Assembly (NCBI GenBank): GCA_051294905.1
Contig: CM119371.1
Span: forward strand, 9,798,001 to 9,862,000
Reading direction: 5' to 3'
Source of the DNA: Botryllus schlosseri
Lineage: Eukaryota
DNA: 64,000 nt
Part shown: positions 18,969-61,100 of the stretch, one piece after another
Layout: each line of letters begins with the position of its first letter
Numbering within the stretch: position 1 is the stretch's first letter
Notes under the pieces: model-generated
The model's input: only the letters and a program-made list of their open reading frames with translations
Database searches by the model: none
What the model was told of the DNA's origin: nothing
Program-made: the position numbers and the translations under genes

Positions 18969-19045
18969 CAGGAAACAAAAATGATCGAGATCGTAATTTC
19001 ATTCTAAATCTGCGTGCTATATCTCACAACCATGAATACACTACG

Positions 19046-19149
19046 TCAACGATAAAATATCAATATAGTGGAACGGATATCTTCAAGTGAATGACCATAC
19101 GTAGTCGGACGAGTGGGGAAGAGTAATTCGCTTCCAGAGCCATACCATC
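19046..19149 (-). CDS. ITLN: Intelectin terminal exon: GWYGSGSELLFPTRPTTYGHSLEDIRSTILIFYR*
   Basis: Acceptor tgttttacag|; ends with the intelectin hallmark (I/L)L(I/L)FYR followed by TGA. Confidence 0.95.
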
Positions 19150-28100: not shown

Positions 28101-31100
28101 TCTGTGATGGCAAGCTGCCTTATGAGTTGGTTCCGGCATCCAGGCCATATGCTGATGGAGAGGTGGTAAAAACGTGCATGTTGAAGGCTGCGGAGGTAGT
28201 GTGCCATGAAAAGCGGCACGCATTTGCCAATATCAGCCTTTCAAGAAACACGGTCGCAAATAGAATAGCTGACCTATCAAATGACTTGGAAAGCGAATTA
28301 AAAGACAGAATTAAAACATAATATATATATCGCATTTTCAGTGGCGATCGATGAGAGCATCGATGTCACAGATGTTACCCAACTGGCCATATTTATTAGG
28401 GGTGTTGATCCGTCGTTACAAATTACTGAGGAATTGCTTCAATTCCTTCCCATGACCGACACTACAACAGCGAGTGATATTTTCATCGCACTCGTTGGAG
28501 CGCTTAACAGGGTGGGGGTAGTCTGGTCCCGTGCCATCAGCCTGGCTACTGACGGTGCGCCGTCGATGGTCGGAAAGAAGACTGTCCTGGCCACGAAATT
28601 TCGGGAGAAGGTACGTATCGCGAAGGGCGGACAAGACGTATATTCGAGGGGTATAGCTTATCCCCGCAACGTTAGTATGTTTACTCAGTAAACTGTACGT
28701 GTATGCAATAAGCCAGTAACTTCATTTTTATGTGTGTTGAAACACATTTTACTGATCCGGCCCGCGAGACATTTGAAGGTCTGAATCCGGCCCGCGACCC
28801 GAATTGAGTTTGACACCCCTGCCATAGAACCTCGCGGTGGTACGCGGCGAGAAAAATTTTTCAAACCACTGCTTCCCACTGTGCGAACCGGACTTTTGCA
28901 TTTTCATCAGTACCATTGCTGCATCCCAAATAGCTCCGCTATACCCCACCGCGGTAAGATATAATAACAGTTGGCGTTGTAGAAATTTGATCACAGTATG
29001 TGTAGACCCATACCTTTTATTAGTTCATATTGATAGGTGTAAACACTTTGTAAAACCGAGTCCGCCACCGCATCTAGCTCGGATTGCGAATAATTCATCC
29101 CGCTTTCTCTGCAGTAAGATTACGGTGATATGGTGAACGCGGACAGAAAATTAATACAGTGCAATTAGTTACCGTGAAAGTAATACATATCCGAAAAGTA
29201 CTCGGGCAGGCGATCCGTCAATTATGTATTCAGCATTTCTATAACCGTAAGAAGATGTCGATTCTGATAACCTTCGAAGCTTGGAGGGATGTTTGGAATT
29301 CCACACCTTCGTAAAATAATTTACTGAATTGAGTCACCGGTATTTTCCGTGAGAATAATAAAGTATTTCATAGGATAAAATTAGGCATTGATAGACAGTT
29401 CACAATTAGATATATTCATAATACTTGAAATATATTATGCTACATATAGACGGGAATCACATATAGTCGACTGTAACGACACGCGCCTTCAGATCTCAAG
29501 TATCGAATTTTGGAGTCACGGTGCTTGTTAATATGCGTTGAGAGTTTATCTCCTTCTGCGTCTCCTTCAACACTATCCTTTCTGCTAAATAAAATGCATC
29601 CATCGATGGCAAGTGCTCAAAGGCATCGCGTGAAATTAATTGTAGAACGTCCATAATAGCAGTGATATAGAAAGAAAGCGTACAATCATAACTTAGCATC
29701 CACACATTGCATGTCTGAAATTGATTCCATATTGATATAAGGGAGCTCTGTAAAGGACTTCATTTTCTGAAGCCGCAATATTATATTGAGTTCGAGTATA
29801 TATTGTGCTCAATGAGAGCAACATAGTTGATCCCGACTAAACTGTAATCATCCTTGGACGTTTTCAATATCAAATATTTTTGGTGTTGAGTGATTCAATA
29901 TTTCAGAATACTAATGAAGACAGTAAAATATTAATTCGCATACTTGATATTACAATATCGGTTCATTTGGAGCATTGGTTCCCTAACTTTTTTGGTGTCT
30001 CGGAGCCGCATTTCAAATTTCAGAGTACGTTTGGGGCCGCACGAATACACTCACCAAAGGTATACCAAATATTATGGAGCATGAAATCACGTACCAACGG
30101 ATAGCAACACTAACAAGAAAAAATATACACAAATCAATTTAATGTCCAACTTGGCATTGGCTTTGAGCTTTAAGAAGCGTGTCAAAGCGAAGCGTGATTG
30201 CAGAGAATGCAGTAGGCAGTAGCTGCTTGAGGTGGCATCGGTCAATCGATTGCTCTTTTGATTTTTCATTCTGACCATTTTGTCGAAAAGTGCTTTACAT
30301 ACGCAAGTTGATCACAATAGAGAATCGTTTATTTGGTCATTGGTAATCAAGTTGTGATAGGTTCCGTATGGACTTGACTGCAAAATTCCAGTAAGTCCAC
30401 ACTTTTAAATAATACTTGAGCTCGATATCTGACTGCATGTCTAGCAACTCCAGTTGAAAATGACTAGAGGCAGTGGCCACATTAACTGCAATAAGATTTG
30501 AAAACATTTTCATAATGGGCAAAAAACTCATCAATAAAGTTGAAGTTCAGCCTGTTGTATGCATCAAATGATCCATTGGTGTGATGGCCATATACCGTTG
30601 GAAAGTATGTTGTCACACCGCCTGAACTTAAGTCTGGGCACAAGCTGACTTAACTATGAGTGCTGATCCCAACGCATTTGATTGTGAGTATACTTTTTGG
30701 CGTGACTTGAGTAACGAAATCGTTGCTGAGTAGAGAATCGCTACTCGACAGCAGAGAAATTGGTCTCCACCCTTAATTACAAACTTTAGACTCCAAGCCA
30801 AGCAACGGCACTTTTTGAAAATGAATCTAATTTTTTGTTGTTATACATTGATTATTCATCATTTTTGTAGGATTTTCAAACGTCAACGGAAGACGTATGC
30901 AGCTCTCGAAGCCGCGGTTGGGAATCACTGATTTGGAGGGTTTCACGAACTGAAACCAAGCACAGTTAGGCTAAATCATTCTTCTCCTTCCACTTTTGCC
31001 ACAAGTTAATCGTTATGCCACTGAACCATGATGGTATTACTATGGATGGGGTTACTATGCAGGTGAAATAGCGAAGCAGTTTTATACAGACTACTTCAGT

Positions 31101-34100
31101 TAAAATCGAAATGAATAAAATTATTCTTATTTCTAGGTGCTAATAAAGAAATGCATCATGACCCAGCAAAGTTATAAAAATGGTGATCAAAAATGTATCG
31201 AGTTGAATATTTTAAATTGTGGGTCTTGATGTCACAAAATAACATGAAATTTTTGTGATGTCATAACTAATTGGTCTTAGTAGAGAGTATAGCCCGACGC
31301 CCGTCACAAGCAGGATATCTACTAAAGCAGACCTGGACAATGTGTGGCCCGCGGGCCCAATGCGGCCCGCGATTCTGTTATATGCGGCCTGCGCAAAGTT
31401 GCTTGGAATTCAAACAGGAAACCTACTCAATATTACTGCGCGGAATAAAACCATAGTCTGTATAAACTGAACTGAAAATTCGCTTGCTTTTAAGCCTGTC
31501 TAGTTCTTTAATATGCCGAAATTACGAGCCTACGTACCTCGCATGCGATTGCGTAATCCGGATTCACAATATTGCCGAGGTAGCAAATTATTTCGTAACA
31601 ATCAGAGTCACAAGAAGACACAAAACCCCTTTTTTGCCAAATCCCTAATTCGTAAAACAAGTCAATTAATGCCCGTAATTACTACGAGTCATTAACACCC
31701 ATAAAGAATGAACGGGCATGTGGAAAAACACGGCCGACAGTTGGAATTCAAAGTAGGTTTCGAACACTAAATATTTAGAGTCAGGAGTAAACCCGTATTT
31801 TTAGTAGTTCCTGCCGAGCAGGTCGCCGTCTTTAGGGAGTGTAATTTAAGTCGGTCTTATGCCAACACACGAAGACATACGCTCGTTCAGAGAGGGCGAA
31901 TTTTAGAAGGACTGCAAGCTTAACACAACAACAAGGCTATTTTACCAAACTGAACGCTGTTCCGAAGGCAGTGACCAAAGCAATAGGATTTGTAGTATCC
32001 CAAATTCATTTTAATTTCTTGATAGAAAAAAAAGCTGATAGCGGTGTAACGAGAGTTCAAAATATGTCATGTTTAACATTGTTACAAATATAACGGTAAA
32101 TAATTATTTAATTAACCGTCACTTTCTCATTCATAATATCAACACTGAGAAGCATTTATTACCAGTGTCATTCTCTGCTTTCAATTTAGAAATACTATTA
32201 ATACGGTAGAGAATACAGCTAAAATTTTGACTTGGCCCGCCAACGTATTTTCTGCTTCTCATTTGGCCCACGGAGAAAAATAATTGCTCACCCTCCCCCT
32301 GTAATACAGGCAGCAACCAGTTATTAAATAGCACGAACCTTTGTACTCGCCACGTAGAAGTGGAAACGGCATTCCGTTTTTAGTTTCTGGTTCGGCTGAT
32401 AAAACTGGATCGCACTGAAGTAGATTTGGAAGTCGCCAAGCTGTGTGTTACCCTCGAAGTAGGTGATATTGCTGTTCTCGTAGCGAATTCTATACGAGTG
32501 CACCTGTAAAATAAATTGCTCCTCTACTTTTACAGATGACGATTTCCTCTAATCCCGGGCTGTCAAACATATGGCCCGCGGACCTCATCCGGCCCGCGAA
32601 CAAGTTCGAGTAAATGAAAATATTACGTGAATTAATCCAGCACATATTTGACGAATGTTTAGATTTCAGGAAGAAATACTTTCATTAAATAGCCCCTCAA
32701 CACAACAAATGTCGAGTATGTTCATAGGTCACATTAAACCACCCGACCGCGGTGTTACAGTTCCACTACTCCCCATTAGGAACCAAGTTGCTGGCATTGA
32801 CACCCGATTCAAGAAACGTAGAAGGTACACACTGATGTCAGAGGGTTGGGAAAATTGAAGCAAAAATAATTCTTCGCAGAAACGAAAACGCCGATGCGAA
32901 GCCGCAATACGCAGATTAAATGGAGAATAAAATGATCGCGAGATATAATTCAAATATTTGATATTACACTGCTGCAGCTTTTTTGACTCAAAAGGTGCCC
33001 ATTGTAATTTTGTCAATTCCACAGTTTGCGAAAAAAAGGCGTTGCTAAGGCTTGTTAACATGGTATTCAAGTGAAAAAAAAACATGGATTTTGAGGCAAC
33101 ATTTTAGAATCATTTGACTAATCCGGCCCGCGAGCGGTCTGAAAATCTGAATCCGGCCCGCGAGGCAAGCAGAGTTCAACACCTCATCAAACAACACAAC
33201 AGTCGGATATTCTGAGAAGTGGAACCTATTTATCAGAGCGTCAGTCACATAGACCTTAATGCGCAGAGTACACACTTAACACGACTCTGCCATCCATCAC
33301 TTCTAACAAATCGCTCCATGTCACCTACTTACATATTGAGCTGGCAATACCCTATCCCCAAACCCAATATATTGACCGAACAAATGAGTGGGTGACTAAA
33401 AGAAATGATCAATACCATGAATTTTATATTCATGTCATCGAAAATAAACAAGTCAAGCATAGGCGTCAGCGAAAGTCGTGAAACTACACTATTTACATCT
33501 CTCAATTTCTGCTTGATCATGCCTATGGTGTCAAAGCATATTATTTAAAATGATTTCGGTAGGTAAAAGGCAAAGACTGATTTCTATCGTTTATTTCACT
33601 TTAGGCTAATTGTCTTAAAAAGTGCTATAATTGTAAAATCATTTCCATCACATAACTGTAACGTTTAGTAGATACGTGCTCCATCATGGAAGACATTTTT
33701 TCAGACGGGTTGCATCCAAGGTACAAAGCTCCGAGTCACAAGTCCTTCTCACTTTTATAGTTTTGACTTGAGTCAAGTCGAGTTACTTCCAGTTCAACAC
33801 CGAGTCAAGTCCGAATGCAATTCCGCCGAGTCCGAGTCATGATATTATAACTCGAGCCTGAGTCCAAGTTATTGTTTTGACTGTTCAGTTTCCAGTCAGT
33901 CTTGTTGAACCTACTTTCTATAACTCTGTTTGGTGATATCGAATGCTTTGCATTTATAATAGACTAATTTCATCACTATTAGCAGTTTCTGGTCACATTT
34001 TCAAGTACCAGTACCAGTAGACAAAATCATAATAGTGTGGTTACCAGTGTTGGGATGACTCGAGTCCTGACTTGACTCGAGTAAGACTCGAGTCAACTTT

Positions 34101-37100
34101 TTCGTATGACTTGACTTGACTCGAGTCACTTCGGAAAAATGACTTGACTTGACTTGACTCGGCGCTTCAGAAATGTGGATTGACTCGTGACTCGGAGCAA
34201 AATTTACGAGTCAATTTCAAGTCGTCAATAAGTAAATGGGGTCAAATAATTGTTCGGAGTATTCGCGCTACGCCGGTGTCACCCCGGTGAGAGCAACCAG
34301 TCATTCACTGATTGTACGTTTCACTGGTCCTCCATTGTTACATCACAAATAAATTGGCCGGAAACTAAATGATCATAGCTTACGTTGACACATTAGTAGT
34401 AGCTTAATAGCAACGTATCTCCTTTTCGTAGACGGATCACTGCTTATATTGCGCAGTGCTCACCTTTATCAACCCTCTTGTATGTTTTAAATCGAATGAA
34501 TATAGTCAATCCGTTTATATTCTCACGGATGTGTAGATGGGTATTGTATTGTACCATATCAATTTGTTTAAACTTCTCTAGGCTTCGTATTCTATCCTCT
34601 ATTTTGGTCGATAATAACAGACTGTAGCATATAACTATACAGTTACTCACGTATTTTATTAGCAGTTCTACGTGTGTGGGTGCGATACACGCCTTTTTGC
34701 ATGTATATTTAACCTTATATTCGTTATTTTATTCAAGATAAATGGATAATTATTCTGTCTTTCACACAGCTGGCAAAATGTTATGAGTCTGAATTATCAC
34801 TGGCCCTTCAAAAAATCAATTTGACTTGAATTGTGACTTGACTCGACTTGACTCGAGTCAACTCCAAAAATCGAGTTATTTGACTTGACTCGAGTCACCT
34901 TTGGAAAATCTGCAATGACTTGAGATGACTCGGGGGGACTCGAAGGTCGTGACTTGATCCCAACACTGGTGGTTACTATACTATTTTTCGAAATTGCAAT
35001 GAAATGTCGGTATTAGCCGTCTGAGTGTCGACGTGTCGAGTGGTATGACTTGGTTCGAGTGCTGCGCAATGATTCGAGTCGAGTCATGACCCGAGTCATT
35101 ACAACCCTGGTAGACAGTACACACTGTTCAGACAGCCGGGATCGCCAGACGATTTTCTTGGCCCCGCGACCGCCTCTAGAGATCAGTGGTTTTCAAGCGG
35201 ATGGGTCCGCCCTTGGGGTGGTGGTGTGAGGGGAGGGTTGCGAAGTCGAGTCCAACTGAAAATACGTTCGCGCGCTGCGCGATTTACCTCCTATCCATTG
35301 ATATTGTTCACTGTCTAGTCAGAATGTCATGCTTCAAAATTCTCTTATGAGCAGTCATAACCTTGCTTGCCATTAAACCACCTGTTGTGATTGCTATCAG
35401 TGAGCTCGCGCTGTCTACCAAAGTCAGATTTATGAATATGTGGTTTCGAATCAAACATAAAGACTATAATAATCCAGTGACACTTATTTAGCGCAAGTTA
35501 TGAGCACACATTCAAACACATGTACCAGGAGGACGTCGGAGTTTATTACAGCTCCTATCATACCAATATGAAGTAATTTGATTTGGAACAGAAATTCTTT
35601 GTACGATGGGTTTCCCCTATTGTGTTTGTCCTAATATGGGCTTTGACATAACGTATATCGGGTTGCCAATCAATTGGATTACCACAGAAAGTATACGCGA
35701 CAATGTAGTGACTGTGCAGTGTGCAATATACCAAGCCATTTTTCGGGAGTAGGAGGGGTTAGGGAGCGGTTGATAGCTGATTTAAGGCCCAAGGGGCGCA
35801 GGGGGGGGCTTTGCGCAACAAATAATGTGAAATACTGCTCTAGATCAAATTGCTCGAAATCGGTGAAAACCCATGTCGATTCCCTTACGACGCCATTAGT
35901 GAAACGTTTGTATTCAGGGTCAAAGTGACTGAGCGTGGAAAACCTGCCTAATTCAACGAGTAAACTCAGAGGAATCAGAATCCAACTTGATGATTTATTT
36001 ATAGTCAGCAGATTGGGCAGATAGCATACCAAATTTAGCGCAATGTAGCCACAGCAGACAATGACGACCAATTATTTTGATTAATTTAGCGACTGCTAAT
36101 CGTGGCGCATTTTGGGCGGAGATCATAAGTTAGAGTTAGCTGATCCGGAATCATGCTAATCATCTGATTAAAAACTGCTAATCGGGACGCATAAAATCGG
36201 ACAAGGTTACGCCCGATGATTAGGCCTATACCCTAGGTGTCTCAAGTTGGCAACCAAGTTGTGTTGTGTGCCCTGTTATCTGTTGCATCATACTGGTTAA
36301 ACGAGTTAAAGACTGCCAGTTGTCAGGTTGTTGAATGAAAGTGTCGGCTGCCGATAAAAGATAGTGCGATATTGTAACCAGTGTTGGGATCAAGTCAATA
36401 CCTACCAGTCACGACTCATTTCGAATCATTGCAGATTTTGACTCGAGTCAAGTCAAGTCGAGTCACGAGTCAAGTCGCAATTCAAGTCAAGTTGTCTTTT
36501 CGAAGTATGAGGTATGATTGAGTCTTTGCATTCGCCATTTATTATAAATCGAGGAACGACTACAGAATTAATTAGACATGCAAAAAGGCGTTGTATAGCT
36601 CACGCATGCGTAGAATTACGTCTATAATTATCCGCTGAATTATAAAATAACGAAACTTCTGATAGTTGAGACGAATTGATATGAGGCACTACCCAATTAT
36701 ATATCCATGGGATACAATTTAGGCCTACACCAATCGTTGGCGAGTGATATAAACTATATTCGAATTTAATTTATATCTGTACAAGAGGTTTGGTTAAGGC
36801 AGGGGTCGCCAACCACATTTCCAATTTCGTTGTTTCCAATTTCGAGTTCATTTTATCCATATAAAATGGGCAACACAGCTTATCAGCCACGTTTCAAAAC
36901 TTCATGTAAGTACAACGCTGTGCTATCTAACATAGGCGATGGGCATAGTCACCGCAAAGCAGTAGTATTATCAAAGGAATGCAAATGCAACAAAAATCAT
37001 GATCATCACTTTCATTTTATTCTGAAGTCTGAGCTGTGCACGATATCTGGCAACGTTTTTCAGCGACTAAGGAATCTATATTGGGGCTTGCGAGAGACGT

Positions 37101-40100
37101 ACTACCTGAAAGACCATCTACAGTACACAAAGTCTGATTTTATGGCGAAGCCCTAAGCCGTTTTCTAAGCGTCTATCGGTCTTGCCAGTGTTTGGGCCAT
37201 TGCACGGTAAGGTAATATACCCATGCCCAATGCCCATTCATATCAGCTGATTCTCCCTCGACAGAATGATGTTGCCAATGTTGCCATCGCCAAAGCCGTT
37301 TTAGATTGTGAGGAATAGTGATGTCGGGCACAAGACAATAGTTTGTTTTGAAACAACAACAATATGTTGAAACTGTATTCAATTTGAGCATTTCAAAACG
37401 CTTTTCATAGCATTCTTCCGAAATATCAAATCAAGTCGCGGGCCGCATGCGGTAGGCCTAGTGAGCAACATCCATTGAGGAATAGGAATTTAATTTATAT
37501 TAGTGTGAAACGTTGAGGTCTTTCGGCAATGGCTTTGCGACGCGACCGATTGATTATCGAGTCAGTACCTCCATCTTTGAATCATTATTACCACCATGGG
37601 TGGGAGCGTATCGTCATATTATTACTTCGCCGAAACTAAAATGGTGGTTTACTTGGAATTTACTCACTTGTAGTCTATAGTAGCTGCTTTCTTGGTTGTC
37701 ATTCCTCACAAAGATTAGTGTTGTCGATGGAGGAGTAGAACTACTGAAATAAGTTGATCCGCATGGAAAGCTGGAGGTAAAAAGATAGATTTATCTACAT
37801 GCAACTTTGTGATTGACAATAATTTTTACTATCGTTCTATCTATCATTGGTTTATTAGCAATTTTATCAGTTCAATACACCACAAAAATGCGATACAACG
37901 AATGGATAGGTAGGTGACGAAGCGACTTGGAGTAGTCTATGGAATCAGACACCCACCTTGGTCTAGTCTAGGCGATGTAAAGAGGAGGCATGCACACTGA
38001 ATGACAGTGAAAGAAGATGGGGTGGCATGTCATGGAAGGCGAATCGATAGGTCAGGTCGTGGTCCGTTTTTGATGGTATTGGTGATATATTGATGTGCAA
38101 TGAACCAACTGTATTATAACAGGAATTCTCAACCCGCAGACGTTTATTTGTAGGCAATTATACTGTTGATATGGTATTGTTACATATTAATTTATCTACT
38201 TAGCTCGTTCATGGCAGCATGTCTGTTACTCCACTGCTAAAACATCAATGGGTTGTGGGTTCGAGTCAGACCGAGGCTGACTCCAGAATTTCTACCAAAG
38301 TGTTGTAGGTTTATCTAGGCTCCTCCTCGCCATCTTATCTGTGTAAACGATGTCCTAAAAAGCCTAGAAGTGGGCCGTGCTCTATGTCGGCAGTTACGCG
38401 ATCAAAAATGACGAATATCGGCCTGGTGTGAATGACCATTGCAGTCGACAAACACCATGAGTTCACAAACAACAACAACAACCGTGTCTGTATTGTTGTG
38501 ACTCATTCTTTGACTGTTACAATCAGGACTCGCCACGACTGGCTTGAACAGATCGCGACAAGGAAAGAGAAATTAGCGACGAATACTGGGTTTGCAAGTC
38601 TGCGTTGAACGATGAATTTGCTTTCGCAGGTATTCAAAGTTTAAAACGACATCACCGACAGTTTGATCTAGAGTTCGAAAATAAACATGGACCTGGTCCA
38701 CCTGATCTTTTAAAAAAAGTGTTGCTGGTGTCAAGCCCGGCAATCCATCTTTCGAGGCAATAACGTTAAAGAGGCATTGTTCACAATTGCTTGGAATATC
38801 GTTGAAGCCAAGAAGTCAAGTATACTATGTGGAATTTTAAGAAAGGCTGTGGGAACTCATTGATTCCAGAATTTAGCAACAACGACAACATCACCTGGCA
38901 AATGTCGATCTGTTATCGTAGTTTCGGAAACACGTTGCCGCACAGGCTACTCTGACCTTGCATTGGAGGAGCTCACCGACTCACCCACAGATATTACGTA
39001 GCTAAATAATCTTACGTCATTTTTTTAGAGTGGGCCCATTTGAAGAGGAAATGCAGGGCAAACGTGGGAGGGGACAGTCGTTCTGCATTGAGGGGCTTTT
39101 ATCGAAGACCAGCCAAAAACATCAACTTGACAAAGCTGACTTGCGCCATTGGAAGATGACTAATTCATACAGAAACAGTAATTTCTAACTTACGAACGCT
39201 GTTCAACAATGCTTTAGAATGCAACAAAATCTATTAAACGTCCCTTACGACTGGTAAATAAAGAAAATTTAATACAGCCTGCAAATACATGGTAATAATG
39301 TTCTGCGCCCCCGCAGCCTGCTTTGCTGTTAAAATGGGACCCGTTATACATGATATGTTGATAACCCCTATATTATACTCCGGTAACAACACCACTACGA
39401 CACTGCCAGTCGCTTTTAGTTCTCATGAAAGGATAACTTAACGTCGTATGGATTTGTATACTCCTGACACTTTAATTTCCATGGTGGTGGCCAGAAACCA
39501 TCCTTACCTTATAGTAAGGGGCACTCTAAAATGACGCTCTGGCGGATCTGATACCTTGCTGGCAGTGTTTGCATTCCTCGGAGCCGCCGATACCATCCGC
39601 TTAATTGTCATTCTTGGTATGGTCGTTAGTATTTAACTTTCGTTTCCGCGACCCAAGAGAATAGGCAAACGACCTTATTGTGGTCCCGATCCCTAGTTTG
39701 AAACCCTTGCAATGGATATATTATACTATATTTTCTGATAGTCAGTCAGTCAGTCAGTCAGTCAATCAATAAGTAAAGTTATATTGATTCGGAATAACTA
39801 TAAAATGCGATATCATACGAACTGTCTGCCTGCCTGTAGCTTGGCAAGAATGGAGATCGGAGGTTGAACAGTAGCGGAGAACAACTTCCACAACATAAAA
39901 ACGATTTTGCTTGCTTTTTACACAGTTTCGACAATTTTTTGACCTAACGCTACACTCACGACAAAATTCCGACACTTTTTGACACATGTCAAATAATAAT
40001 CGCTTTAGTTATGGCACAATGAACAGTTCTTCGTTCGTTTCAACAGAAGCTGGACCATTAGGTTGAAACAATGAGATCCATGCAGCAGTGGCGGCTCGTC

Positions 40101-43100
40101 CTATAGGGCAACTGGGGCATTGCCCCACCTAATATTCTGTTCAATAACAATTCTTTATCATTTATAGACGCACACCAATCTATATATACCGAAATCACAG
40201 CGAAAATCGTATTCTTCTTGTCCTTTCGCTTGTAAATGCCCATATATAGCGAAGTCTCTGCGAAAATCGAATTCTCTTCCGTGTTTTCGCTTGCGAATGC
40301 CTAGCCGGGGATGCCCCGGTAGCGCTCATAACAAGCTTTCACTGTCTATTCTCTCAAAGCCGCGCACAATAAAGAAACGGTGATTTACTCTCTCCTATTC
40401 GTAAAGTGGCCGAGCAACCGGGGCGAATATGCCTGGTCGCCCCTAAGGTGTGATGTAACAATCGTATCTATATGTGAACTCAATTACCGTAATATGCGTT
40501 TAGTCGACCTTTGCTGGTATAGGTCGATTTTGATGATGTTTCACACCATGAACACTCTTGAAATTTGGTATGTCATGTCGTGATGGTGGTATTTAACACT
40601 GCCCAAGTTTCAGGGTTTCTACTTAAAGTTTAGGGTAGTCATTCCGTTTCCGAAGTTGAGTTTGTGCTGATCCGTCATGCATCGCAAACAGATTTTACTC
40701 AAAAGCCGGTATTGGTATCCATTGATTTTGACGATGTTCAATACTGAGATCGATTATGAAATTTGGCACGGTAAGTTTTAATGTTGATATCGAACGCTGT
40801 ACCAAGTTTCAAGTTTGTCACTGAACTGTGTTAGTGGTAATTTCGTTTCCTAATTCGAATGAGAGCTGACTCGTCATTTATCGCTAACAGATTATACGCA
40901 AAGCTGGTATTGGTATCTATTGATTTTAACGATGCTCCTTACCTAGATCCGTCATCAGCTTTTGCACGGTTTGTCTTGATTTTAGTATCGAACGCTATGC
41001 CAAGTCTCAAGGTTGACACTCACTGATTAGGGCCGTAATTTCGTTATCAAGGTCGAGTATGGTAGAGATGTGCTCCGATCTGACATTTTAGCCTTCAACG
41101 CATTGCGGATTTCACGCAAAAGCCGTTTTATCTGCGGTAACGTTAACTGAGATGATAATATCATTCTCAGTTTGCATTCAAATATTTACTTTGATATTAT
41201 ATTCTCCAATGTCAATTTCACCGTGAAATTGTGGCCGTCAAGCCGTTTGCTAACAACCCCCTGTCGAGCGCGATAGCTATTTAGTTTTCGATGGCCGCCA
41301 ACAGCTGATCACTTGATCAGCCTATTCCTCAGTAAATTTTACGCAAAATTCGGTGTTGGTCTGTTCGCATTAATTTTGACAGCGTGCCATATCGAAAAGG
41401 GCAATGAGGCCACTTCTCGATGATGTCATGTAACAGTGTACTAAGTTTAAGGCTTTCATCCACGTATTTATTCCGTAATATATATTCCAAAGGCGATTTC
41501 GCAGCAGACCTATAGACAGTAATAAAGACTTATGTGTCGTGTTACAATCTCTAGTTTCAAGGCCAAAATCTTCTATGCTGTACCGAGACCTAAATTCTGA
41601 GGCTGCTATTCCTAGTTCGTCAGAATGATGATTTGGATTCAATGTGACAGGCCCAATCTATGAGATAACAATTGCGTATCTTTCCGAACTCGTTGACCTT
41701 TCCAATTAGACTTACACTATCTCTCGAGTTATAGTCATTTCCATTTCTGCAGATAATTAGTCAGGTCTAGTGCGAACATGAACCGTCTTGAATCTTTGTT
41801 CCGTACGCCGTTTACGCAGTTGCCATACTTCAAGTCACAGCTCACCGGCGGACCTCTCGTGGCACATACGTTAAAATCACTGTTGCCGAGAAATTCATGT
41901 TACCATACCATCATTTAGTTACTTGTTTACGTTAGAAAACGCCATTGTGACGTCATCTTGATAAAAAGTCGTGTGCAGCCCTTGCCCCACCACCCGATAT
42001 TGTCACGAGCCGCCACTGCCATGCAGTGGTAGTAGACGGTTAACTCATACAGGGCCATGATGGCATAATTGTTTTTTTTAACTTCGACAGAATCGTGTCC
42101 ATGCTGCAGAACAGAATCGTACAGAAAATACCGTTTCATCTTGCTGAATCGCATTGTACTGTATATGAATAATACTGTACTATTTGTAACTTTTTATGTG
42201 TCAATGTTTGTGTAACATGGCAATACAATATTTATTGATTTATTAGGCATCAAAATAATGTACAGTACAACTAACCAGAAGCAATAGTTTTGGGTGTTTG
42301 ATGGGCTCAGTGTCAATTACTGCAGCTCGGTAGCTGTAATTCAACCATTTCGCAACAGTACATTGATTTCAATGCGCTGTCTTCCAAGTGATTTTCGCCT
42401 AATTCGCACAACGCCGTTTCTCCGCTTGATTCGGCCAAAAGAGAGAGGAACCGAATTTTCCGAATTAAAGTGGAGTCGACTATCTTGATAATACGGGGTA
42501 GGCCGTGCTACAAGTCGGGAGGTGCGGGATCTAAAAATAAAGATTATCGGCCCAGTGTAAATGACCATTCTAGAAGATAAACACCATGAATACTACATGG
42601 GAATCCAGACTCTCTCAAAATCGCCAAGGAATGTGGAAATCGGCATTGTTACGTACAAATACATTGCGGTGAAGCAATGCAAGTCGAGTCACAAACTAAT
42701 GAGCCTTGCTTTTGTTGCCCTACCGACCTGGTAATCGCACTGTCATGAAATAATGCGCCATCGAGTGTGGATTTAGCGAACCAATAGTTTTCCATATCTA
42801 TCCACAATTGTTGATACGTTGCTTCTTCTTACGTACCGTGCAGAATCAGTCTACTTTTTGGACGTACTCAAGTCGTTTTCCACTAATTGTTGTACATACT
42901 CGAGTAAATCTAATTTGCCAATACTTTGAATTCGTAATATTTTTCGATTTACTTAGAATATTCGCTATTTTCAGATTGTCAAGTAGAAGTATTGTGTTCC
43001 TTCAATTGGAACGGTGTTTCTCAAACTTTTTTGGGCAGGCCCCTCTCGATGATAGTGAAAAATTTTACTCTTCGTTATCGTCATTTCTAAACCATAATCT

Positions 43101-46100: not shown

Positions 46101-49100
46101 AAAACATCTCTAAACTGCAACATGTTTGTATCCCTAGGCCATTGACAATTTAGCAATGAAAATGAGTGTGCACGCTAGGATTTTTTTTTTATCTCAGATG
46201 GCCGTTCTGTTGATGTGAACTCTGGAGTTTAGCTAGTAATGAAGCGAAACTCCCTCGCGATATTCCGAATTGAAATAAAATACAAATTAGGTAATCAAAA
46301 TGTTTGTATCAGTAGGATATTGACAATTTAGCCATTAAAATGAGTCCGCACGGTAGGATTTTTTTTTGTTATCTCAGATGGCCATTCTGTTTATGTGAGC
46401 TTTGTAGTTTCCCTAGTAGTGAAGCAAAACTGGCTCGCGATATTCCGAATTGAAACAAAATACAAATTAGGTTATCAAAATGTTTGTATCAATAGGATAT
46501 TGACAATTAAGCAATGAAAATGAGTCTGCACGTTAGGATTTTTTTTAATCTTAGATGGTCATTCTGTTGATGTGAGCTTTGTAGTTTCACTAGTAATGAA
46601 GCGAAACTGCTTCGCGATATTCCGAATTGAAACGAAATACAAATTAGGTTATCAAAATGTTTGTATCAGTCGGATATTGACAATTTAGCAATTAAAATGA
46701 GTCTGCACAGTAGGATTTTTTTTTATCTCAGATGGCCATTCTGTTGATGTGAGCTCTGGAGTTTCACTAGTCATGAAGCGAAACTGCCTCGTGATATCCC
46801 GAATTAAAAAAAAAAATCGGTTATCAACTATTTTGAGGCTTCGCGGACCCTTCGAAACTGCTTTACGGACCCTCGCTTGCGAACTACTGCTCTACACCTT
46901 CCGTATAACTCAATTTGCAGCTTTTGGGTGTTCCTGCGAATGTATTATGACTGTTTTCGGAACTGCCTAAATAGCCTACTTACTCGAGTAGATTTTAAGG
47001 CCAGCTAATTCTACTTCTACTTGAACTAGTTTCCGTTTGATTTTAAAAGTACTACATCTACTAGTACTTTAGTAGATTTTAGCGTTGCTTCTTCTATTTC
47101 TACTTGAGATTCTTTCCTCACTACTTTGACCACCTCTGGTAGCGTGGGTGTGAAGAGTGCTAATGTGATACGAAACAAGTCGTCATCTCATTTAGCCAAC
47201 ATTTCAAGGTTTTATATAATAACCACGGTATGTAACTTCCGAATAGTCAATCTCAACGCTCTCGCTAATGAAAGAGTGATCGAGATTATTGACAATGTCA
47301 TTAATTTTACGTCCTCGAACTCGAGCCTAGAATACACATTCGAAGGTAATGAACGATAGGGAGGTTTCATCAAATACATTAAATAATTTCAACTTTATCG
47401 TGCTGTCATTTAAATTAACATTCGTGAATCATTATTCGATTTTTGCGAGCACCCGATAACGGTCGATTATGTACATGTCGCGATAACGGATCAAACGGCC
47501 AATTTCCGGAAATCATGGGTCATTCTGATTAGCATCATTAGAAAACACCGGCGGTGTCCATTCTTTAATCAGAGATAACCAGAGTAGATGAAGCTACATT
47601 GCATGAGGAACGACATGACGTAACACGGCCCCGAGAAGCTATATCTTTGTGAATTATAATTATGCAATGATCAAAATCGATATAGTGTGATGGTAATCAG
47701 AACGATATGAATTAAGCGAGAGGGAGTCTTATTTTTATCCAACTGGAAGTTGGAAGCAAAGCGCAAGTAATGATTTCTGGGTTCAGCAAATTCATTTAAA
47801 TGCTCTTGTAGCCTAACTGCTAGAATTTCAGTCTACGATTTTTAGATTCTTGACATAGATTGCGCAGTAAACGTTTCGATATGTAACGCTGGATCGCTTC
47901 CGCAAACCTTCGTTTTTATTTTTTTGTACATTAGAATAATTATCATTAATATTATTCTCATTCTTATACCCACCGTTGACAACTTTTTGCCTCAAAAAAT
48001 GTCTAGACCAGGGTGGTCAAGTCTGTGTCGCAATTTGCGATTGAAACAGACACCTTCCGGTGAATGGTTTTCGGGGGTAGACCTTTACAATCGCGAAAAT
48101 GTTTCAAAAAAGTTGCATAAATATTCAAAAACTACATTTACGTCAATTCACGAAATTATCGTCTTCGGTTAAACAGTTTTATCACTTAGATATAGATCAG
48201 AAGCGGGCAACCTTCCCTGAAAGTGAAATTCCAGTCTGAAAGTATTGTAAAATTTTATGAGTCACAGAATGAATCCCAGTTTGTCAAGATGAGAAAAACA
48301 GTCATGGCACTATTGGTTCTGTTCGTGTCTAAATACATTCGCGGGCAAACAATTTCGACCGTTAACATTAGCAAGACAAGAATGCATGCCAACATAACTG
48401 ATGTTCACGTGCAGTCTTTACCAAGGGTTTCTGCGACACGCAGCCAAAGTTAAAAGAACTTGTTGACAACTTTGATCGACCACAGATGTCTGATTGAATT
48501 AAACAGCTATTGCAGTAGACATTAGGTTAACAAATTTATCAAATACTGTTCTTCCGTCTCTATGCTTTAAACCTATAGTTCACAATAATACGGTTTATTT
48601 CTTACATAGGCTCTCTCTTCCGAAATTTCATGCTGGTGACGTCATATTTTCGATACGATTGTTGATATACAATGTTCTTTCCAAATCTCTACTAGTTGCT
48701 AACGATTGCCCCTAACGAGTGTCAGCCGAAAATATTCGGGTTTATTTCAATATGAATATACTTGTCAATTGTATATTGAAGTTCTGTACCTCAAAGAAGC
48801 TCTTTATATAGGAGGATAAATGCGCGATTAATGTATCGATTCTGTATTCTGGCCCACTAAGTACTTCAACTTCCCATATCAGGCTCGCCGACCGGGGAAG
48901 TTGCCCACCCGTGGTATAGATCATTGGTACGGAATGGGTGTTCTGATGATGATGACCACCGACTGTTAAAATGCTGTATAGCGATGTAGTCCTGATTAAA
49001 GATATTTTTGATTCGTTTATGACAGTGGTCGGAAGCTCTTTTCGTCGAAGGAGCCATATTTACGCTATATTCTCAATTGTCAATGCCAATATACTTTGAC

Positions 49101-52100
49101 GTCTTTATTATTTATTTGTGATGTCATGGCTAAAATAATAAACAAGAATCAATTTGAAACAAACTGATTTTTGTTTTGAATGTAACCCTAAAGACCACCC
49201 CAAATACCACACATTTTCGTATTCCATACAGAAATTTCGTTACATCCCATAGATTACTTCCATAACATGTCATTCCATACTACACTATATATGCCCTGCT
49301 GGTGAAAGTAGAGAAAAAAGAATACTTACGTCACATTCCTTCCGTAGGTCGCATAGCCAGACCACCTGGTGCTCCTGATATACACCTTCATAAATAAATA
49401 ATGACTTCATTTCACATAAATTAAAGTTTTAGTCCTACACATATATACTTATAATTTTTAATCACGATGTTTCTTTCTTCTATGGTTATGATAACAAGAA
49501 TAAGGTGATATCGTTAAAATATAATAATCAGTTAACTATGATTGTCATAAAATTCTTTAAATCAACTATATTTTGGCATTTTTCACGAAGACAATAGGAC
49601 AATATTACTCAGTGCTCTATTGCAGTGTTTGTTGTTGTCACGGTGTTTGTCGACTACAATGGTCATTTACACCAGGCCGACATTCCCTATTTTTATTACG
49701 TAGTTGCCGACTTGTATCACGGCCAACTTCTGGGCTTTTTGAAGACATCGCTTACTCGGATCATATAGCGAGAAGTAGCCTAGGTAAGCCTCCCACACTT
49801 CAGCAGGAATTCTAAAATCGACCGTGCAATGATTCTCAACTTTTTTCGTTTTGTGACCCGGTAAAATTCGAAAAAATATTTTGTGGACCGGTGGACTTTC
49901 AAAAATTGAAATCGACCAAAAATATAAAGTATGCAACCGTTTTTCTGCATATATATGGTGCTGAAAAGTGACATTTTTAGAGTTTTGGTCGTAATTAATT
50001 ACGTTTATGATGGCATCCATGTGATTTTGCAGTAGTGTGTCTGCTGAGTCGACCGCCGGGATTCGTTTACAGTCTTTCGCGCCGTGGATTTAACCGACCA
50101 CGCTAACTCGAATAATATTCTTTTCTTTGACAATATCGGGAGAAGAAGCGTTTCGGAGTAGAACCAAACACTTTATCGCGCTACCTCTCGCATTGGTCAC
50201 TATCACCAAACGTAGGCTATAATCGGGCTACTACGAATACATGGTAGGCAACGGCACGAAAACGCCTGACAACAGCTATACCCGGAAATCCACAAAATCA
50301 GCGCCGAAAGGGCACTTCGGCAGCCCCCACCCCCAAAAAAACGATGATCTCTGGCCCACCACAGTTGGATGAGGGCACTTCCTGCACGATAAAAAACGCA
50401 AGTTAGTGACTATGGCGACCACGAATACCGCAACGTAAGCAACAACGTACATCAGCAAACCAAGAGGCGACGCTCAATCAACATATATAACGAACAGAGC
50501 ACGGGGCGCCTGATCAACTGATGACAATAATCCCTACACTAAACCCTGCAGATTACTGTAGTAACAGTACAGAATACCAGGACAGCGAGACTCGGTGCCA
50601 GCCGTTTAGGCCCCTGTGGACAATTAAAAATGAATATATCGGTGTTTTCGGTCATCAAAGGCTCGTCCTTTTTGAACAAGGTTTATTCGCTGCTGAAATT
50701 TCAGCACACTTTTCGGAGTCCCATGTAAGCTGAAACCTAATTATGTATCTGTCCGTCGTGGTGCGATAATCGTTGATGCCAAAATGCCTATTGTAAGAAA
50801 TCATGCGTATTTCACGGGGAAGGGGCGCCCAATGATCAAAACAATGAGTTATGGCAAATCGCGCAATGCGCGAAAAAATGAAATAAGTTGACTATCATTC
50901 AAAAGATGCATCATAATTTATTTTCATTCACAAAATAATTGTCGGCTTCATTAAAGATCGGCCACCCTCACTTGGTGATATATCTGGGGGAGGCACTGAT
51001 TACGAATATGACCTTAGTTTTTTTCAAATTAGCTCTTGTTTTGGATATAACCATTGGGGCTATATTGATCAAAATCCCCCATTTTTGCTATAATAGCTAG
51101 ATAGAAAAGCGGTTTAGTCGTACTATGAAATTTAGACATTCAATCTACTTGTTATTTTTACACACAGTAGACTATTTTGAATCAAAATACAGCAACAGCA
51201 CTATATAGGGGTATTAGATTTATCATAGTTATAGACTTTCACGGATCATATAGGCTACTTAAAAAAAAACTCCAGTCATATATATAAGTTTTTACCTATA
51301 GATACTCAAATACCGTGGCAATTATTCAATCAGTTTAACGTTAACCACCTATTATAAATTGGAAATAATCAGTTGGAATATAACATTATTAAATTATATT
51401 GAAGCACAATTGTTTTCCGTACGATTTTCGCTTGTAAGCAATTTAGTTCAGTTTCTCAAAAGGTTCCAGCAATGGTCTGCCATAATATGCTCATCTCAAC
51501 TGCCCTGGTAACTTTCTTTTGATGTTTTGATGACTTGGCGGAACCTCTTCTCTTCTTAATAAACAATAAATTCGGGAAATATATCAAGATGACTGAACAA
51601 GAATTGAACTTTTATGCCATGTTTGTTCCAAGTTCTCCATGTGCAGCTACGAATGTTCGGACCAACTATTTGTAATTGGGTGCTTTGTAGTCATCTAAAA
51701 AGTTTTCTTTGCTACATCTTAGGAGATATTCAATGTAGTGAACTACCTATTCGAATCGGTAATCCATCAAAGATACCAGATTTGGGCTTCTCGTTTGATA
51801 GGTATACTAGGAATCAGGGCTGTGGAGTCGGTAAATTTTACCAACGACTCCGGCTCCGACTCCGACTACACACATTTTCAATATACCGACTTCGACTCCG
51901 ACTCCGACTCCTGGGTCTTTAAACGTTCCGACTTTGACTCTGACTCCCGACTCCGACTCCAGCATTATTACCAATTTACTTCATTGTCGGTTGAATGACT
52001 ATCATACAACCATTAAACATATGCAAACATATGATAAACGGTGATATGCTAAATTTTTTCATTGTGGCTCAGGTCGAATTATCCACTATGCAATTAACAT

Positions 52101-55100: not shown

Positions 55101-58100
55101 TTAAGAATCACTGATTTAGAGTATAGAATACTAACCTACAGATAGATACGCAACTCCCGTCGTTACGCTCGGGCAAGCAGTTGGACTTGTTGCTGAGCAA
55201 TCTAAAAGTACGGTTACCATACGTCCTTTTTAAAAGGATTTTGTCCTCTTTTTTGACTTTTTTGAAAGTGTCCTCGGAGGACGCCATTTTGTCCCATTTT
55301 TTGAGATTTTTGACTCTTTTTAAGAATTTTGGTCATATTTATAGCAAACTGCGACTGATATGCCGTAAATCAGCTCCAAAGTGACGCTCCGGTGGGTATT
55401 CCGGGAGCCAGGCGGGAAGTTGACCTTTTTTTTATTTTAGTCAACCGATCTTAAAGTGGAAAAAGTTGACCGTTTTTTGATAATTCTTCTCAGGTTTTAC
55501 AAGTCTGAAAATTCTGAAAAAGTTTCCTCTTTTCAGATATCCAAAATATGGTAACCCTATCTAAAAGGAGCATAATAGATGGTTTTATAGCTTGCGACCC
55601 TTGTGCTGAAATTTAATGAAACTTGTCCTAATTGACAGCTACTGTCGCTCTCATTCCAAAAATACGAATTGAAATCGCGTCAGGGAAATGGAACCACCTA
55701 AGATCAACCCTGAAAGTTTTGAAATCGGCATTGTTTCAATTATGCTTTCAGATTGCTCAGCAAGAAGTGTAACTGCTTGCTACAGCGTAGCGACGGGAGT
55801 TGCGTATCCATCCGTAGGTTAGTAATGTATATTTAGAGCACATATAGGTACAAGTTAATTCGAGGAAATGTTAAATCAGGGGTCGCCAACTCAAAACGGG
55901 TCGCGGGCCACTTTTCAAATTTCGTAGCCGCCGCGGGCCGCATTAATTCAATATCGATATAAAGTGGGCAACCACTTTTAAAACTATACGTCAGTACAAC
56001 GCTGTGCTACCTAACATAGGCGATGGGTATAGTGACCAAAAAGTAATATTTTATTATAGGAATAAAAATACAACTAAGGATCACTGTCATCAATTTTATT
56101 TTATTTTGAACTCCGAGCTGTGCACGATACCTGCAAACGCTTTTCAGGGCTAGCGATATACTTAACTAGTTGAAAGACCATCCCCACTTGATGCTTAATC
56201 TTGTGGGTACAAGGCTTAAGCCAGTGGTTCTCAAACCTTTTTAGACATGCCCCCATTTATTATACTGAAAAATTTCGCGCCTCCTTATCGTCATATCACA
56301 AAATGCATCCACAATGCTAGCAACAGGTAGTTTGATGGCATGGAAGGTTATGAATGTTGATGAGAGAATTCTATGATATGAATTCCGGATTATACACAGA
56401 GTAGTACAGTAACTATAAATATGAAATCGAAGCAAATCGCAGCTCCGCCCCTCTTTATCTGCTTTCGCGGCCCTATAGGCGGACGCACCCTCAGTTTTAG
56501 AGCCACTGCCCTAAGCCGTTTTCTAAGCGTCTCGGTATTGGCAGTGTTTGGGCCACTGCACGCCAATGTTAGCATTTCAAAATCTTTTTTATCATTCTTC
56601 CAAAATCTCAAATCATGTCGCGGGCGGCAAAATATGACCTGACAAGCCACATGCGGCCCGCGGGCCGCGTGTTGGTGACCCCTGTGTTAAATCAAGTGAC
56701 AATCCCGGTGATTGAATTTATGACAGACAAATGGATATGGTTCCTCGGCTCTGAAGACTTTGTCATATCGTACCACTCGTCTACCTTGCATGTCGCATTT
56801 CACTGTTACATTTTTGTAGTGTTATGTTGATATGTAATGTATACGAATAAAGATTCTCTCTCTCTCTATAGTTAGAGCTAGCATGAAAGATCTTAAAAAT
56901 ATTTTGTAACAAAGTGCTGTTTAACGTTGTTTTCTCGCTGACCTCCTATGTTTGAAAACAAAACAACAGTGGTTCCCAACCTTTTTGTTGTCACGGACAG
57001 CTTTCGTCAAATTAATTCTGCGGACCCCTGCTGAAATTTTGCCTGAAACTCAATTAACACACTATTGACTATTATAATAATTATGCTACTAAACTATTGT
57101 ACAGTGTCTAACTGTTGACGTTGTTGTTGTTGTTGTTGTTGTTTATTAGGGATTCGGGCTCGTTCGTGAACCTCTCTTGCATTGCCGGACTTTGTTCGCT
57201 ACTGCAAGTTAATGTGTGTGCGATGTCTATGAATTGTGTGAAGACTATAGTGATGGAATCGCCCTTAATAGAGGGACGGGCGAATATGGGGAAGGGGGGG
57301 TTCCCCGGGAAAGGGTGAGTTTCTCTCATCTTATGAAAAACTCGCCAGATTTAAATATATTTCTTCTGGCTGCGACCTTGCTAAACCTCTTCGCGTTACG
57401 CATATACCAGAAAAGTAAGTTTAGGAAGTATGCTTCATATTGAAAATGTGGCACGAGAAATTCGATAAACGATGATCCAAGTCTTCTCTGTGATAATACA
57501 AATTCAAAATACTTACATAATTTCCATGGGAGCTAAACATCTCGCGATCGGTTATATAATGCCTGCCTGGTATCATGTCATAGTCAAACCAACCAGATAT
57601 CGAATTTTTAACAGTTAGATCCTGGGAAACGTTGCGCAGCACCATGGCATTGTAATCTAAATATACCAATAATATTGTTCAAATTCCTACAATCATATAA
57701 TTCAAGCTCCCGCTGTTACAATTACGCTCTTTTCGCACTTTCGATCTCGATTAGGAAAAATGTCTTATCAGGCGCGTAGCCGCAGCCGAGAATAAAAGAG
57801 GATGTTTTGTCAACAGAGGATGTTTTGAATTATACCAGATTTTTCGGTCTAATTGTATGCAAAAAGGCTTCCACAACAAGTATCAGATAGTCTCGCCCGA
57901 GTTAACAACTCTATGCGTTTATATCTACATAGCCATGGTCTACTAAAAGATGGCGCCAATGACGTATGCTACGATTGATAGAAGCCTCAATACTTCTTTT
58001 CGTAGGTGCGCTTCTAATTACTGAGAGCGAGTTGCGACATCGACAATCGACAAAACGCCCGTGCAGACTAATATCGTATCAGAACCAGATTCACGAATGT

Positions 58101-61100
58101 TGATATGTGCAGCCGGAATCTGATATATCGTGATAACTTGTGACATGGTTCAGTGCAATGTAACGCCCGCCCGACGTTCCAATCTTTTTTATTTTTGCCC
58201 GTAGCTTACCCACTCAACCAAGTTGTAAGATATAGAACCACAATGGTAGGCTGAGATAACAGCAGAAAGAGATACATAGTTTGCCCTTAATTATCAAAAG
58301 TGAGCAATAGTAGTGTGATCAAGTTACAACACAGCAAGATATCCGGCCATTTCGCGTTCACATAAGAACGCGACCTCGAGTTGGTAATTATATCAGCTCT
58401 CACAAATTATAAAGTGGAATGCGGAATCTCTTATGTATTGATGAAATTGGCGACGAATTAGCTCGGCTGTTGCAATAACAATTGTCCGTATTTGGTACTC
58501 GGGCCTTTAACACATCTCCTGATAGTCATAGTTTAAAATCCGCGCAAAAAACCTCGCTTTTGCTATTAATTGTTCAATGTTCTGTTAACAAATCGACTCT
58601 GCGGATCTTGATTAATTCAAATTGTGCGCCATGAGCTTAGATTCACCATAATATCGTTGGATAATTTGATGTAGGATTTTTGCTATGTTGGGATGGTAAA
58701 GACCAATGTGTGCGCTACAATAGACAATGTCAGTAGCCCGGCTCAATCTCATATTGGCCCAATATTTTCATATCAATCAACTGTTACGTCTAAAATGAAA
58801 ATTTCTGAGGTACTGGTAGCACTAGTTATTATATGAGAATCGTAGTGTGCGCCATATTTTCTCTGCTCACATGCGTAGGTGGAGCCAAACATGGTCAGTG
58901 GTCACTGCAGAAGTGCATACCTTGAAACCTTGAATGAATGTTGATACGGTCTCTTGATGTTTATAAATGACTAGATTTTCATATTTCTTTTTCGAAAAGA
59001 CAGTAGAGTTAAGGCCCCGGTGAGACACAGAGTTGCCTAGCCTCACCTGCCATATAGCGCAATTTATCGAAAATAGCTTTGAATTGATAATCACTTATCA
59101 TAATTTAATGTTAGCATCACTTCGATTCCGGATATCTAAATATTAATCAACCTCTTAAGTATTCGGCGTACATTGCGCTACATACCTAACCTACATTTTT
59201 ACTGCTGTAGCTTACTGCAAAGCTACTTTCCAATCAATAACATGGATAGCAATAATGGCATTGCTTTTAATTTTAATTTGTGATTGGCAATGTCACTTCC
59301 ATAGCAGTTTATTTCTCGGCGTGGATCAGGGAGGAAATTTGAAGACTGCATTGTCAGGCAAGTGTTTTCATGTCTGCTCGTCTCTTCGATCAATTACCGT
59401 ATCAAGCAAAACACGACTTCGAGGTGCACGATGTCGGGTAGGTAGAATTCGCGAGCGATGTTAGTCGTCGGCGCTAAAGTAACTTAATTTTGAGGATTTT
59501 GGAAAGGGAGATATTAGCCCCTAACCATGGATATATATAGAAAAAGACTTTTCGATTAAATAAAAAGGGCAAAAGAAAACAGGAAGCAGAAATACATCAA
59601 GAGAATCAGTTTTGGGCACTTGTTAAGCGCCTCCAGCGTGAGCGGTAGTGGGCATCTTCGAGGGACAGTTCGTGTTGCCCTAGGTCGGTCTCCATTGTCT
59701 AGCGCCATGTGGTTCTATTCCAGCCACTTCTGCGCCACGGCTACGTCGGAATGTGGTTAATGATGGCGGCAACTGGTTGATCGTCTTGATGCCTCACGAG
59801 ATGACCGGTTAGGGGTATACAAAACTCGTTACATTATTGAGCCCGATTTTTCCAAGATGACTTTGTGTCGCGTTCTTCGACGGAGCTGGTATGGCCAGAA
59901 CCTCAGTCTTCTTGGCATTGATCTGGAGGCCAATTAGAGCGGCGGAGGCCTCTAGCTGGTTGATGAGGTGCTGTGCTGATGCAGCATTCGGGTCAAGCAA
60001 GGCGAGGTCGTCTGCGTAAGCAGGAATACCTACGTAGATAGCCTCGCGAGTCGTACGCGTACGCGTTGCTTGCCGTGGCCGCCATTCAAAAAAGTTAGTG
60101 TTGTCCGGGAAGGCTGTGCGTAGCGCGAAGTCAAGGATGACCACGAACTAGAATGGTGCCAGGTTGTCACGTTGAAGCACGCAAGCCGAAGTGGTAAAAT
60201 CTCAGCTTGGGCCATCATCTGTTCGGATTCGTTCTCGTGTGTCAATGTAGAGGGCCATAATGGCGTACGTTATCACCTCAGGAATTCCAAAGAATCTGAG
60301 GATCTTCGCCATGGCTGGGCTCTCTCGCCACTGCTTGGAAGTGTCTTGAACATCTCCGCCTTCGATTTGATACGATCAGGTTTCTTAAATCCACTCCACA
60401 AAGACAGGTGGTGACAAATAGGGTAATAACGCGCAACGCTTCTAACGACACATTTAAGTATGATCGCAACAAATATGACACCAAAGTTGAGAAACAGACT
60501 TTTAATGGATATAAAACGTCCAACCTTGTCATTTTCATTTAGCATCTCATCTTGAATTTATTATGGAATAGTGGTTGTGTATATAACAGAAGAAAATGGA
60601 TCTCTGTAAACATTTCGAAGTCATCGTGATTGACCTTTCTACTTCAACTTCTTATTTTTCCACAAGGTTCAACAAAACATCTCTAAACAGCAATATGTTT
60701 GTATCGGTAGGCCATTAACAATTTAAAGATTGAAATGAGTTTGCACAGCACGATATTTCATCTCAGACGGTAGGTCTGTTAATGTGAGTCCTGGAGCTTT
60801 ACCAGTAATGAAGCAAAACTACCTCGTGATTTTCCTAATTTAAATAAATACAAATTAAGGCGTCAACCATTTTGTAAATATCAAGGTCTTGCGGACACCC
60901 TGTAAATGGTTCGCGGACCCCCGGTTGAGAACCATCGATATAATTTGACCAATATTCTTATGTTCTTTATTCACAGTGAAACTGGTAAAAACACACATGG
61001 GCCGGGAAGGAAGCTGCCCCAAGAGAAAATAGCGAGAATGAAGTAATTGTTTTTTAATTTCAGTAAGGCAGTCAAATTGTTATTCCTATATGAAATACAT

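Follow-up and report, generated by a model that had tools for sequence, protein, structure and literature searches.

An orphan exon set, tentatively a nested gene, inside an expanded intron of a divergent intelectin of Botryllus schlosseri

A 64,000-nucleotide stretch of Botryllus schlosseri DNA (assembly GCA_051294905.1, contig CM119371.1, positions 9,798,001 to 9,862,000 of the forward strand; hereafter the window, numbered from its first letter) carries one intelectin gene on its minus strand, with six in-window exons that span 19046-63499. One intron of this gene is 36 kb long and holds, on the same strand, a set of eight candidate exons, which we call e0 to e7; the last seven of these, e1-e7, are referred to as the cassette. 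Our preferred reading, which is tentative and drawn from the sequence, is that e0-e7 form a nested gene, an orphan with a start of its own that sits inside the enlarged intron of a canonical intelectin. That e1-e7 code for protein, or did so until recently, appears quite probable from their composition, the splice rank of e4, conservation in a partial duplicate and the presence of the in-phase ATG exon e0. In the arrangement that we propose, one intron of a compact, ordinary intelectin would have grown to 36 kb around the same-strand, eight-exon unit. The intelectin mRNA would splice 61759 directly to 25881 and yield the secreted lectin typical of the family, which binds glycans in a Ca-dependent manner. 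A separate promoter upstream of 59101 would drive the nested unit, which would encode a Tyr/Ser-rich protein of ~261 amino acids, for which the make-up suggests, as a guess, a soluble beta-rich protein.

An earlier, sequence-only reading of this DNA had placed intelectin exons at 61.8-63.5 kb and at 19.0-25.9 kb, about 36 kb apart, and this layout is confirmed. In searches against the PDB, exon 61759-61924, on the 5' side of the large intron, matches XEEL (4wmo, E = 5.7e-6), a lamprey serum lectin (E = 1e-4) and intelectin-1 (E = 1.7e-4); on its 3' side, exon 25710-25881 matches intelectin-1 (6usc, E = 3e-4) and XEEL (E = 6.5e-3). The final exon, 19046-19149, gives no PDB match when searched alone. 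Exon 63364-63499 matches Pfam Fibrinogen_C at E = 2.4e-4 and 21.5 bits, where the curated cut-off is 22 and the query is a single exon. The 5' exons of the gene, with the signal peptide, fall past the window end. From 61759 to 25881 the large intron measures 35.9 kb, and the four other in-window introns measure 486, 534, 861 and 5940 nt.

With the cassette skipped, the six exons join into 756 nt of open frame that encodes 251 amino acids and a stop. The two exons that flank the large intron then meet at adjacent residues of the solved lectins (4wmq_A 190/191, 4wmo_F 173/174 and 6usc_A 163/164), junctions that we derived by extending the PDB alignment ranges out to the exon ends. Relative to the intelectins, or X-type lectins, of known structure (human intelectin-1, 4WMQ/6USC; Xenopus XEEL, 4WMO; lamprey serum lectin, 7E1E), the host exons match, carry the fibrinogen-like motif, are colinear and make a product of similar size, but the host has a 36-kb intron where the protein is continuous, and its sequence is divergent. 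One cysteine that we take to belong to the C-terminal segment of intelectins is replaced. Judged by these matches, the host gene is a divergent new intelectin of a known family. The donor at 61759, which must span the 36-kb intron, scores 2.3 bits, compared to 5.6-10.6 bits for the other intelectin donors; this and all other splice scores come from approximate metazoan matrices that were not trained on this organism.

The first of the eight exons, e0, suggests that the cassette has its own start. It opens with an ATG (59101-59099) that has an in-frame stop two codons upstream, and its donor, CAG/GTGAGG, ranks first among the 3570 minus-strand GT sites of the window. A 76-nt intron of the right phase separates e0 from e1, and the extra G at the end of e0 makes the same Val codon at this joint as the intelectin exon does in the sequence-only reading. 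To find a donor of such rank by chance, in phase and right upstream of one of the cassette exons, is very unlikely. If e7 is left unspliced, e0-e7 form an open reading frame (ORF) of 261 codons from the methionine to a stop at 28991-28993, seven codons past e7. The predicted product has three N-x-S/T sites and two cysteines, and no stretch that resembles a signal peptide or a membrane segment. A search for a first exon that would supply a signal peptide to the cassette gave a sole hydrophobic candidate, 58210-58277, which is out of phase with e2.

Whether the exons are real must be weighed against a non-functional origin, in which either open AG..GT intervals would have lined up by accident, or the set would be what is left of a decaying gene that came in with the same rearrangements that produced the duplicate. 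At equal thresholds, the minus strand of these 36 kb yields 397 candidate exons and the plus strand 463, and with about 400 per strand, phase-consistent chains are easily built, so the chain taken by itself could have arisen by chance. Canonical AG/GT sites in fair to very good context bound six of the seven cassette exons, the exception being e1. By splice score, five of the seven reach only ranks 14 to 89, and e1 falls short of the thresholds. Against a non-functional origin stand the eight exons that are open from an ATG, and e4, which is both the best-spliced candidate of the intron and the best-conserved block of the duplicate. On balance, we consider a non-functional origin less likely than the nested gene, but somewhat likelier than in-frame insertion into the lectin.

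The amino acid composition of the cassette also departs from that of intronic ORFs. Our null consists of 20000 resampled sets of intronic ORF pieces, matched in length to the exons; the window is AT-rich, with a G+C fraction of 0.37-0.44 in 2-kb steps. Tyr accounts for 24 of the 236 cassette residues, compared to 9.1 +/- 3.0 in the resampled sets, and only one set of the 20000 reached this count (P = 5e-5), although the excess was spotted post hoc and has to be discounted somewhat. Leu and Cys are low (P = 0.017 and 0.018). Scored by likelihood under the composition of the intelectin exons, the cassette reaches 8.5 bits, whereas the resampled sets give -21.9 +/- 8.8 (P = 5e-4). The sequence-only reading had described the insert as aromatic-rich and mostly beta. 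Hydrophobic alternation, a signal of beta strands, is not significant (P = 0.17). A single polymorphism is listed in each of two exons: 32428, in e5, reads as non-synonymous, which fits a non-functional origin, and 25799, in an intelectin exon, is synonymous.

A partial paralogous copy of the region from 37470 to 50103 lies at 1.6-11.9 kb of the window and contains copies of two cassette exons, e3' and e4'. Between e4 and e4', 91% of nucleotides are identical, which makes this the best non-overlapping 103-nt window in 2545 aligned nt (80% identity overall). Both e3' and e4' retain open frames and all four splice dinucleotides, which argues against decay; under neutral substitution at the divergence of the blocks, with indels ignored, the same retention occurred in 898 of 20000 simulations. 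A search of 1-19 kb gave no copy of e0-e2, no N-terminal intelectin exons and no second intelectin copy. Since the duplicate lacks e1, e2 and the N-terminal exons, it is a partial copy with its upper breakpoint in the e2/e3 intron. If it arose by simple tandem duplication, we infer from the sequence that a unit of ~38 kb would include e5-e7 and the C-terminal intelectin exons, which would then lie to the left of the window. The duplicate sits just downstream of the intelectin 3' end. Close to e4', 180 nt downstream and at the edge of the homology block, is the best-scoring candidate exon of 1-19 kb (1528-1604, minus strand; acceptor 12.2 bits, donor 7.2 bits), which is out of phase with e4'.

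Table 1. Features of the window discussed in the text. A slash marks an exon boundary; ranks are by splice score among the candidate exons of the 36-kb intron on the minus strand.
Feature	Positions	Strand	Particulars
Intelectin exon	63364..63499	-	fibrinogen-like YCDM..GGGW motif; splice sites 9.1/10.0 bits
Intelectin exon	62411..62502	-	phase 1 in, phase 0 out
Intelectin exon	61759..61924	-	5' of 36-kb intron; donor ATTG/GTAGCT, phase 1, 2.3 bits
e0, candidate first coding exon	59047..59101	-	ATG at 59101; 18 codons + 1 base (G); donor CAG/GTGAGG
e1	58921..58970	-	50 nt; weak acceptor ctag/TC, -1.8 bits; donor 7.9 bits; unranked (fails thresholds)
e2	57517..57621	-	105 nt; phase 0 to 0; rank 37/397
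e3	49330..49385	-	56 nt; phase 0 to 2; tied best of 520 phase-fitting candidates; rank 55/397
e4	37668..37770	-	103 nt; rank 1/397
e5	32339..32503	-	165 nt; phase 0 to 0; rank 19/397
e6	29173..29306	-	134 nt; 64-nt intron separates e6 from e7; rank 89/397
e7	29014..29108	-	95 nt; donor AAAAG/GTATGG, phase 1, 8.4 bits; rank 14/397
Intelectin exon	25710..25881	-	3' of 36-kb intron; phase 1 acceptor
Intelectin exon	19684..19769	-	..CVGG..CGDF.. segment; best of 190 phase-fitting candidates
Final intelectin exon	19046..19149	-	closes the frame: ..ILIFYR + stop
Partial paralogous copy	1601..11911	-	colinear with 37470-50103; six blastn blocks, 76-82% identity
e3'	11342..11397	-	copy of e3; 74% amino acid identity (tblastn)
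e4'	1783..1885	-	copy of e4; 68% amino acid identity (tblastn)
Recent hAT-like transposon	27329..28828	+	inside 36-kb intron, just downstream of e7
Non-LTR (long terminal repeat) retrotransposon remains, LINE-like (long interspersed nuclear element)	22353..24346	-	Exo_endo_phos endonuclease ORF and coiled-coil ORF1-like piece; within the intelectin intron of 5.9 kb
Reverse-transcriptase fragment (RVT_1)	59809..60147	-	between e0 and intelectin exon

The sequence-only reading could not name a family for the insert, and the searches leave it without a name. Cassette searches were run with single exons, and exon-sized queries have little power. In Pfam, none of five exact exons matched at E <= 10; with the five exon-bearing ORFs as queries, the only match was to MOV-10_N at E = 0.094, which is at chance level and falls mostly in intronic residues. 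The PDB gave nothing for e5, and the best values for e6 and e2 were E = 0.29 and E = 1.5. A HMMER search of e5 against 1.84 billion representatives returned five matches at E <= 1e-3 (a Por_Secre_tail repeat protein, three repeat ORFs and a TPR/TIR protein, with two to six matched stretches each), which we rejected as tandem-repeat proteins inflated by their repeats. In the ESM Atlas, recognition was 1510 for e5 and 1831 for a control intelectin exon, neither with a match, which shows the Atlas to be powerless with queries of exon length. The control exon (25712-25879, 56 amino acids) likewise found no homologue in a word-based search. Because a genuine intelectin exon also comes back blank in both the word search and the Atlas, the blank homology results carry little weight, including where they would favor a non-functional origin. 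On these searches, the cassette is an orphan, with no exon that resembles a known family or a solved structure.

Several observations weigh against a self-contained gene. In the interval between the unspliced e7 stop and the hAT-like transposon there is no AATAAA or ATTAAA, and the other in-phase candidates for a terminal exon provide just 1-44 residues each, several of them inside the transposon. The e1 acceptor is poor, and a rival AAG 19 nt upstream would yield a stop after two codons. The word-based search that returned nothing for the control exon also found no homologue of e5 or e6, and neither a transcript nor a homologue of the e0-e7 unit was found in the data examined. If an all-protein average replaces the intelectin composition, the cassette is no longer separated from intronic ORFs (P = 0.43), and the post hoc Tyr count and the approximate splice matrices also have to be charged to this side. 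Conservation in the duplicate is uneven: e3 and e3' share 86% identity compared to 81% in their flanks, which is an unremarkable value (top 23% of windows), and the changes in e3 are mostly non-synonymous. Across 159 nt the two copies differ at 17 positions, and the resulting ratio of non-synonymous to synonymous substitution rates (dN/dS), 0.56, is indistinguishable from neutral; both this ratio and the e3 changes count for a non-functional origin. Finally, the e7 donor is good, in the top 1% of GT sites, yet a terminal exon has no need of one. The nearest proven acceptor in phase with it is that of the intelectin exon at 25881, which may be the 3' partner of e7, and the entry and exit of the cassette, both in phase 1, suit the intelectin exons.

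The phase match is what the sequence-only reading had built upon in proposing a chimeric two-domain lectin, with e1-e7 spliced in frame between exons 61759-61924 and 25710-25881, either constitutively or as an alternative isoform. The seven phase-matched exons that it listed between the intelectin halves are indeed present, with a combined length of 708 nt, which is divisible by three and gives 236 codons. Together with the two flanking intelectin exons they make 348 codons without a stop, and at both joints the extra G completes a sense codon. The strong e7 donor, with intelectin as the next bona fide exon downstream, and a cassette make-up like that of the intelectin exons fit this proposal as well. 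It can also make some use of e0, a 30-nt piece of which could, by inspection, serve as an in-phase micro-exon.

What survives of the two-domain proposal is this phase compatibility, for which the prior is about one in nine. Without the cassette, the lectin and the solved intelectins are exactly colinear. The joint 61759-58970 would have to pair the 2.3-bit donor with the -1.8-bit acceptor of e1, which is the one acceptor that the sequence-only reading had itself called uncertain. In addition, the insertion leaves the e0 ATG and its top-ranked donor unexplained. A full-text literature search gave no paper on domain insertion in an intelectin, and broader searches gave nothing on multi-domain intelectins. 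We therefore consider in-frame insertion unlikely. The product that it would predict, a lectin with a lineage-specific, 236-residue Tyr/Ser-rich beta domain in an intelectin loop, perhaps specific to a tissue or a challenge, is accordingly one whose existence we doubt.

A hybrid transcript, in which an internal promoter would drive e0-e7 spliced to the three C-terminal intelectin exons and so join the orphan protein to the C-terminal 119 lectin residues, is the least probable of the readings: e0 would provide the start, the e7 donor is in phase with the 25881 acceptor, and a simple tandem duplication unit would, from the block ends, join e3-e7 with the C-terminal intelectin exons, but the predicted product is without a signal peptide, there is no transcript evidence for it, and the C-terminal part of an intelectin is not known to fold alone.

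We return to the nested gene as our preferred, if provisional, reading and consider its surroundings, in which transposons and repeats are prominent. The hAT-like element downstream of e7 lies 160 nt past the unspliced e7 stop. It has a second copy in the window (9104-10601), and the two are 98.8% identical over 1500 nt. Its plus-strand ORFs match Pfam zf-C2H2_12 (Spin-doc) at E = 1.5e-5, which is below the curated cut-off, and DUF4371 weakly, at E = 0.048. The insertion of this element may have removed an older 3' end of the e0-e7 unit. Separately, an inverted repeat pair of ~450 nt and 77% identity (18521-18966 and 26172-26595) brackets the C-terminal intelectin exons. RNA reads stack partially on both arms, with loose ends at 18911-18964 and 26171-26205, and this partial pile-up points to a transcribed repeat family.

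Four sequencing runs were compared with positions 18500-38499, two of contigs (X1 and X3) and two of raw RNA reads (X11 and X15). The contigs of X1 and X3 cross the e5 acceptor, the e6 borders and the 25881 acceptor unspliced, that is, they behave as genomic DNA. In the RNA runs, 1264 of 1270 and 1047 of 1054 reads are partial fits that represent repeats. Both runs have zero depth in the bin 19167-19833, which holds the intelectin exon 19684-19769, and in the e6/e7 bins, and neither has an RNA joint. The locus, the intelectin exon included, is thus silent in both sampled RNA runs. Of the runs recorded as RNA, none contains e6/e7; in eight others, of uncertain kind, 0.11-0.32 of 28 sampled words occur. 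One X1 contig of 216 letters fits 29139-29304, from 2 nt inside the e6 acceptor and on into the intron between e6 and e7. The 50 letters before this fit match nowhere in 18500-38499; they may stem from a haplotype that has diverged, or mark a junction with an exon beyond this interval.

Nested same-strand intronic genes are a known arrangement in animal genomes. The e0-e7 unit is like them in that it is a multi-exon ORF with its own ATG inside one host intron, and in that normal splicing of the host would omit its exons. It is unlike a typical nested gene in that the cassette fits the phase of the host exons at either side, has no defined 3' end, so that fusion transcripts may occur, and matches no known family. 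A different comparison applies if the cassette is in fact an inserted domain. In natterin/Dln1-type lectin-aerolysin fusions, a lectin module and a beta-rich effector module stand in tandem. The inserted-domain product would similarly combine a lectin with a Ser/Thr/Tyr-rich, Cys-poor, beta-type module, but nested instead of in tandem. No cassette exon matches an aerolysin/ETX-type Pfam family, so this likeness is without sequence support.

The sequence-only reading had also stated that known intelectins are compact and have no such insert, and this agrees with the available text of PMC6321704, in which the intelectins described are all compact, single-domain proteins, a further point against an inserted domain. 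The placozoan intelectins in that text are secreted, single-domain proteins of ~250 amino acids with a signal peptide, and intelectin counts are given as up to 6 in mammals, 9 in teleosts and 22 in tunicates (PMC6321704, citing Yan et al. 2013).

A true insertion would make this the first two-domain intelectin, and one of the rare instances in which a compact lectin fold has naturally received an inserted domain. It would represent a switchable two-domain immune lectin without a described counterpart, for which the duplicate could supply a second version of the cassette, and it would bear on how innate immune receptors acquire effector parts. The likelier reading is that an orphan gene sits within a divergent but ordinary intelectin, in an intron that has expanded, is laden with transposons and has been duplicated in part. 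The locus then carries a caution, which is that gene predictors, and readers too, will join nested exons to a host gene of the same strand when the phases happen to fit, and so arrive at false chimeras.

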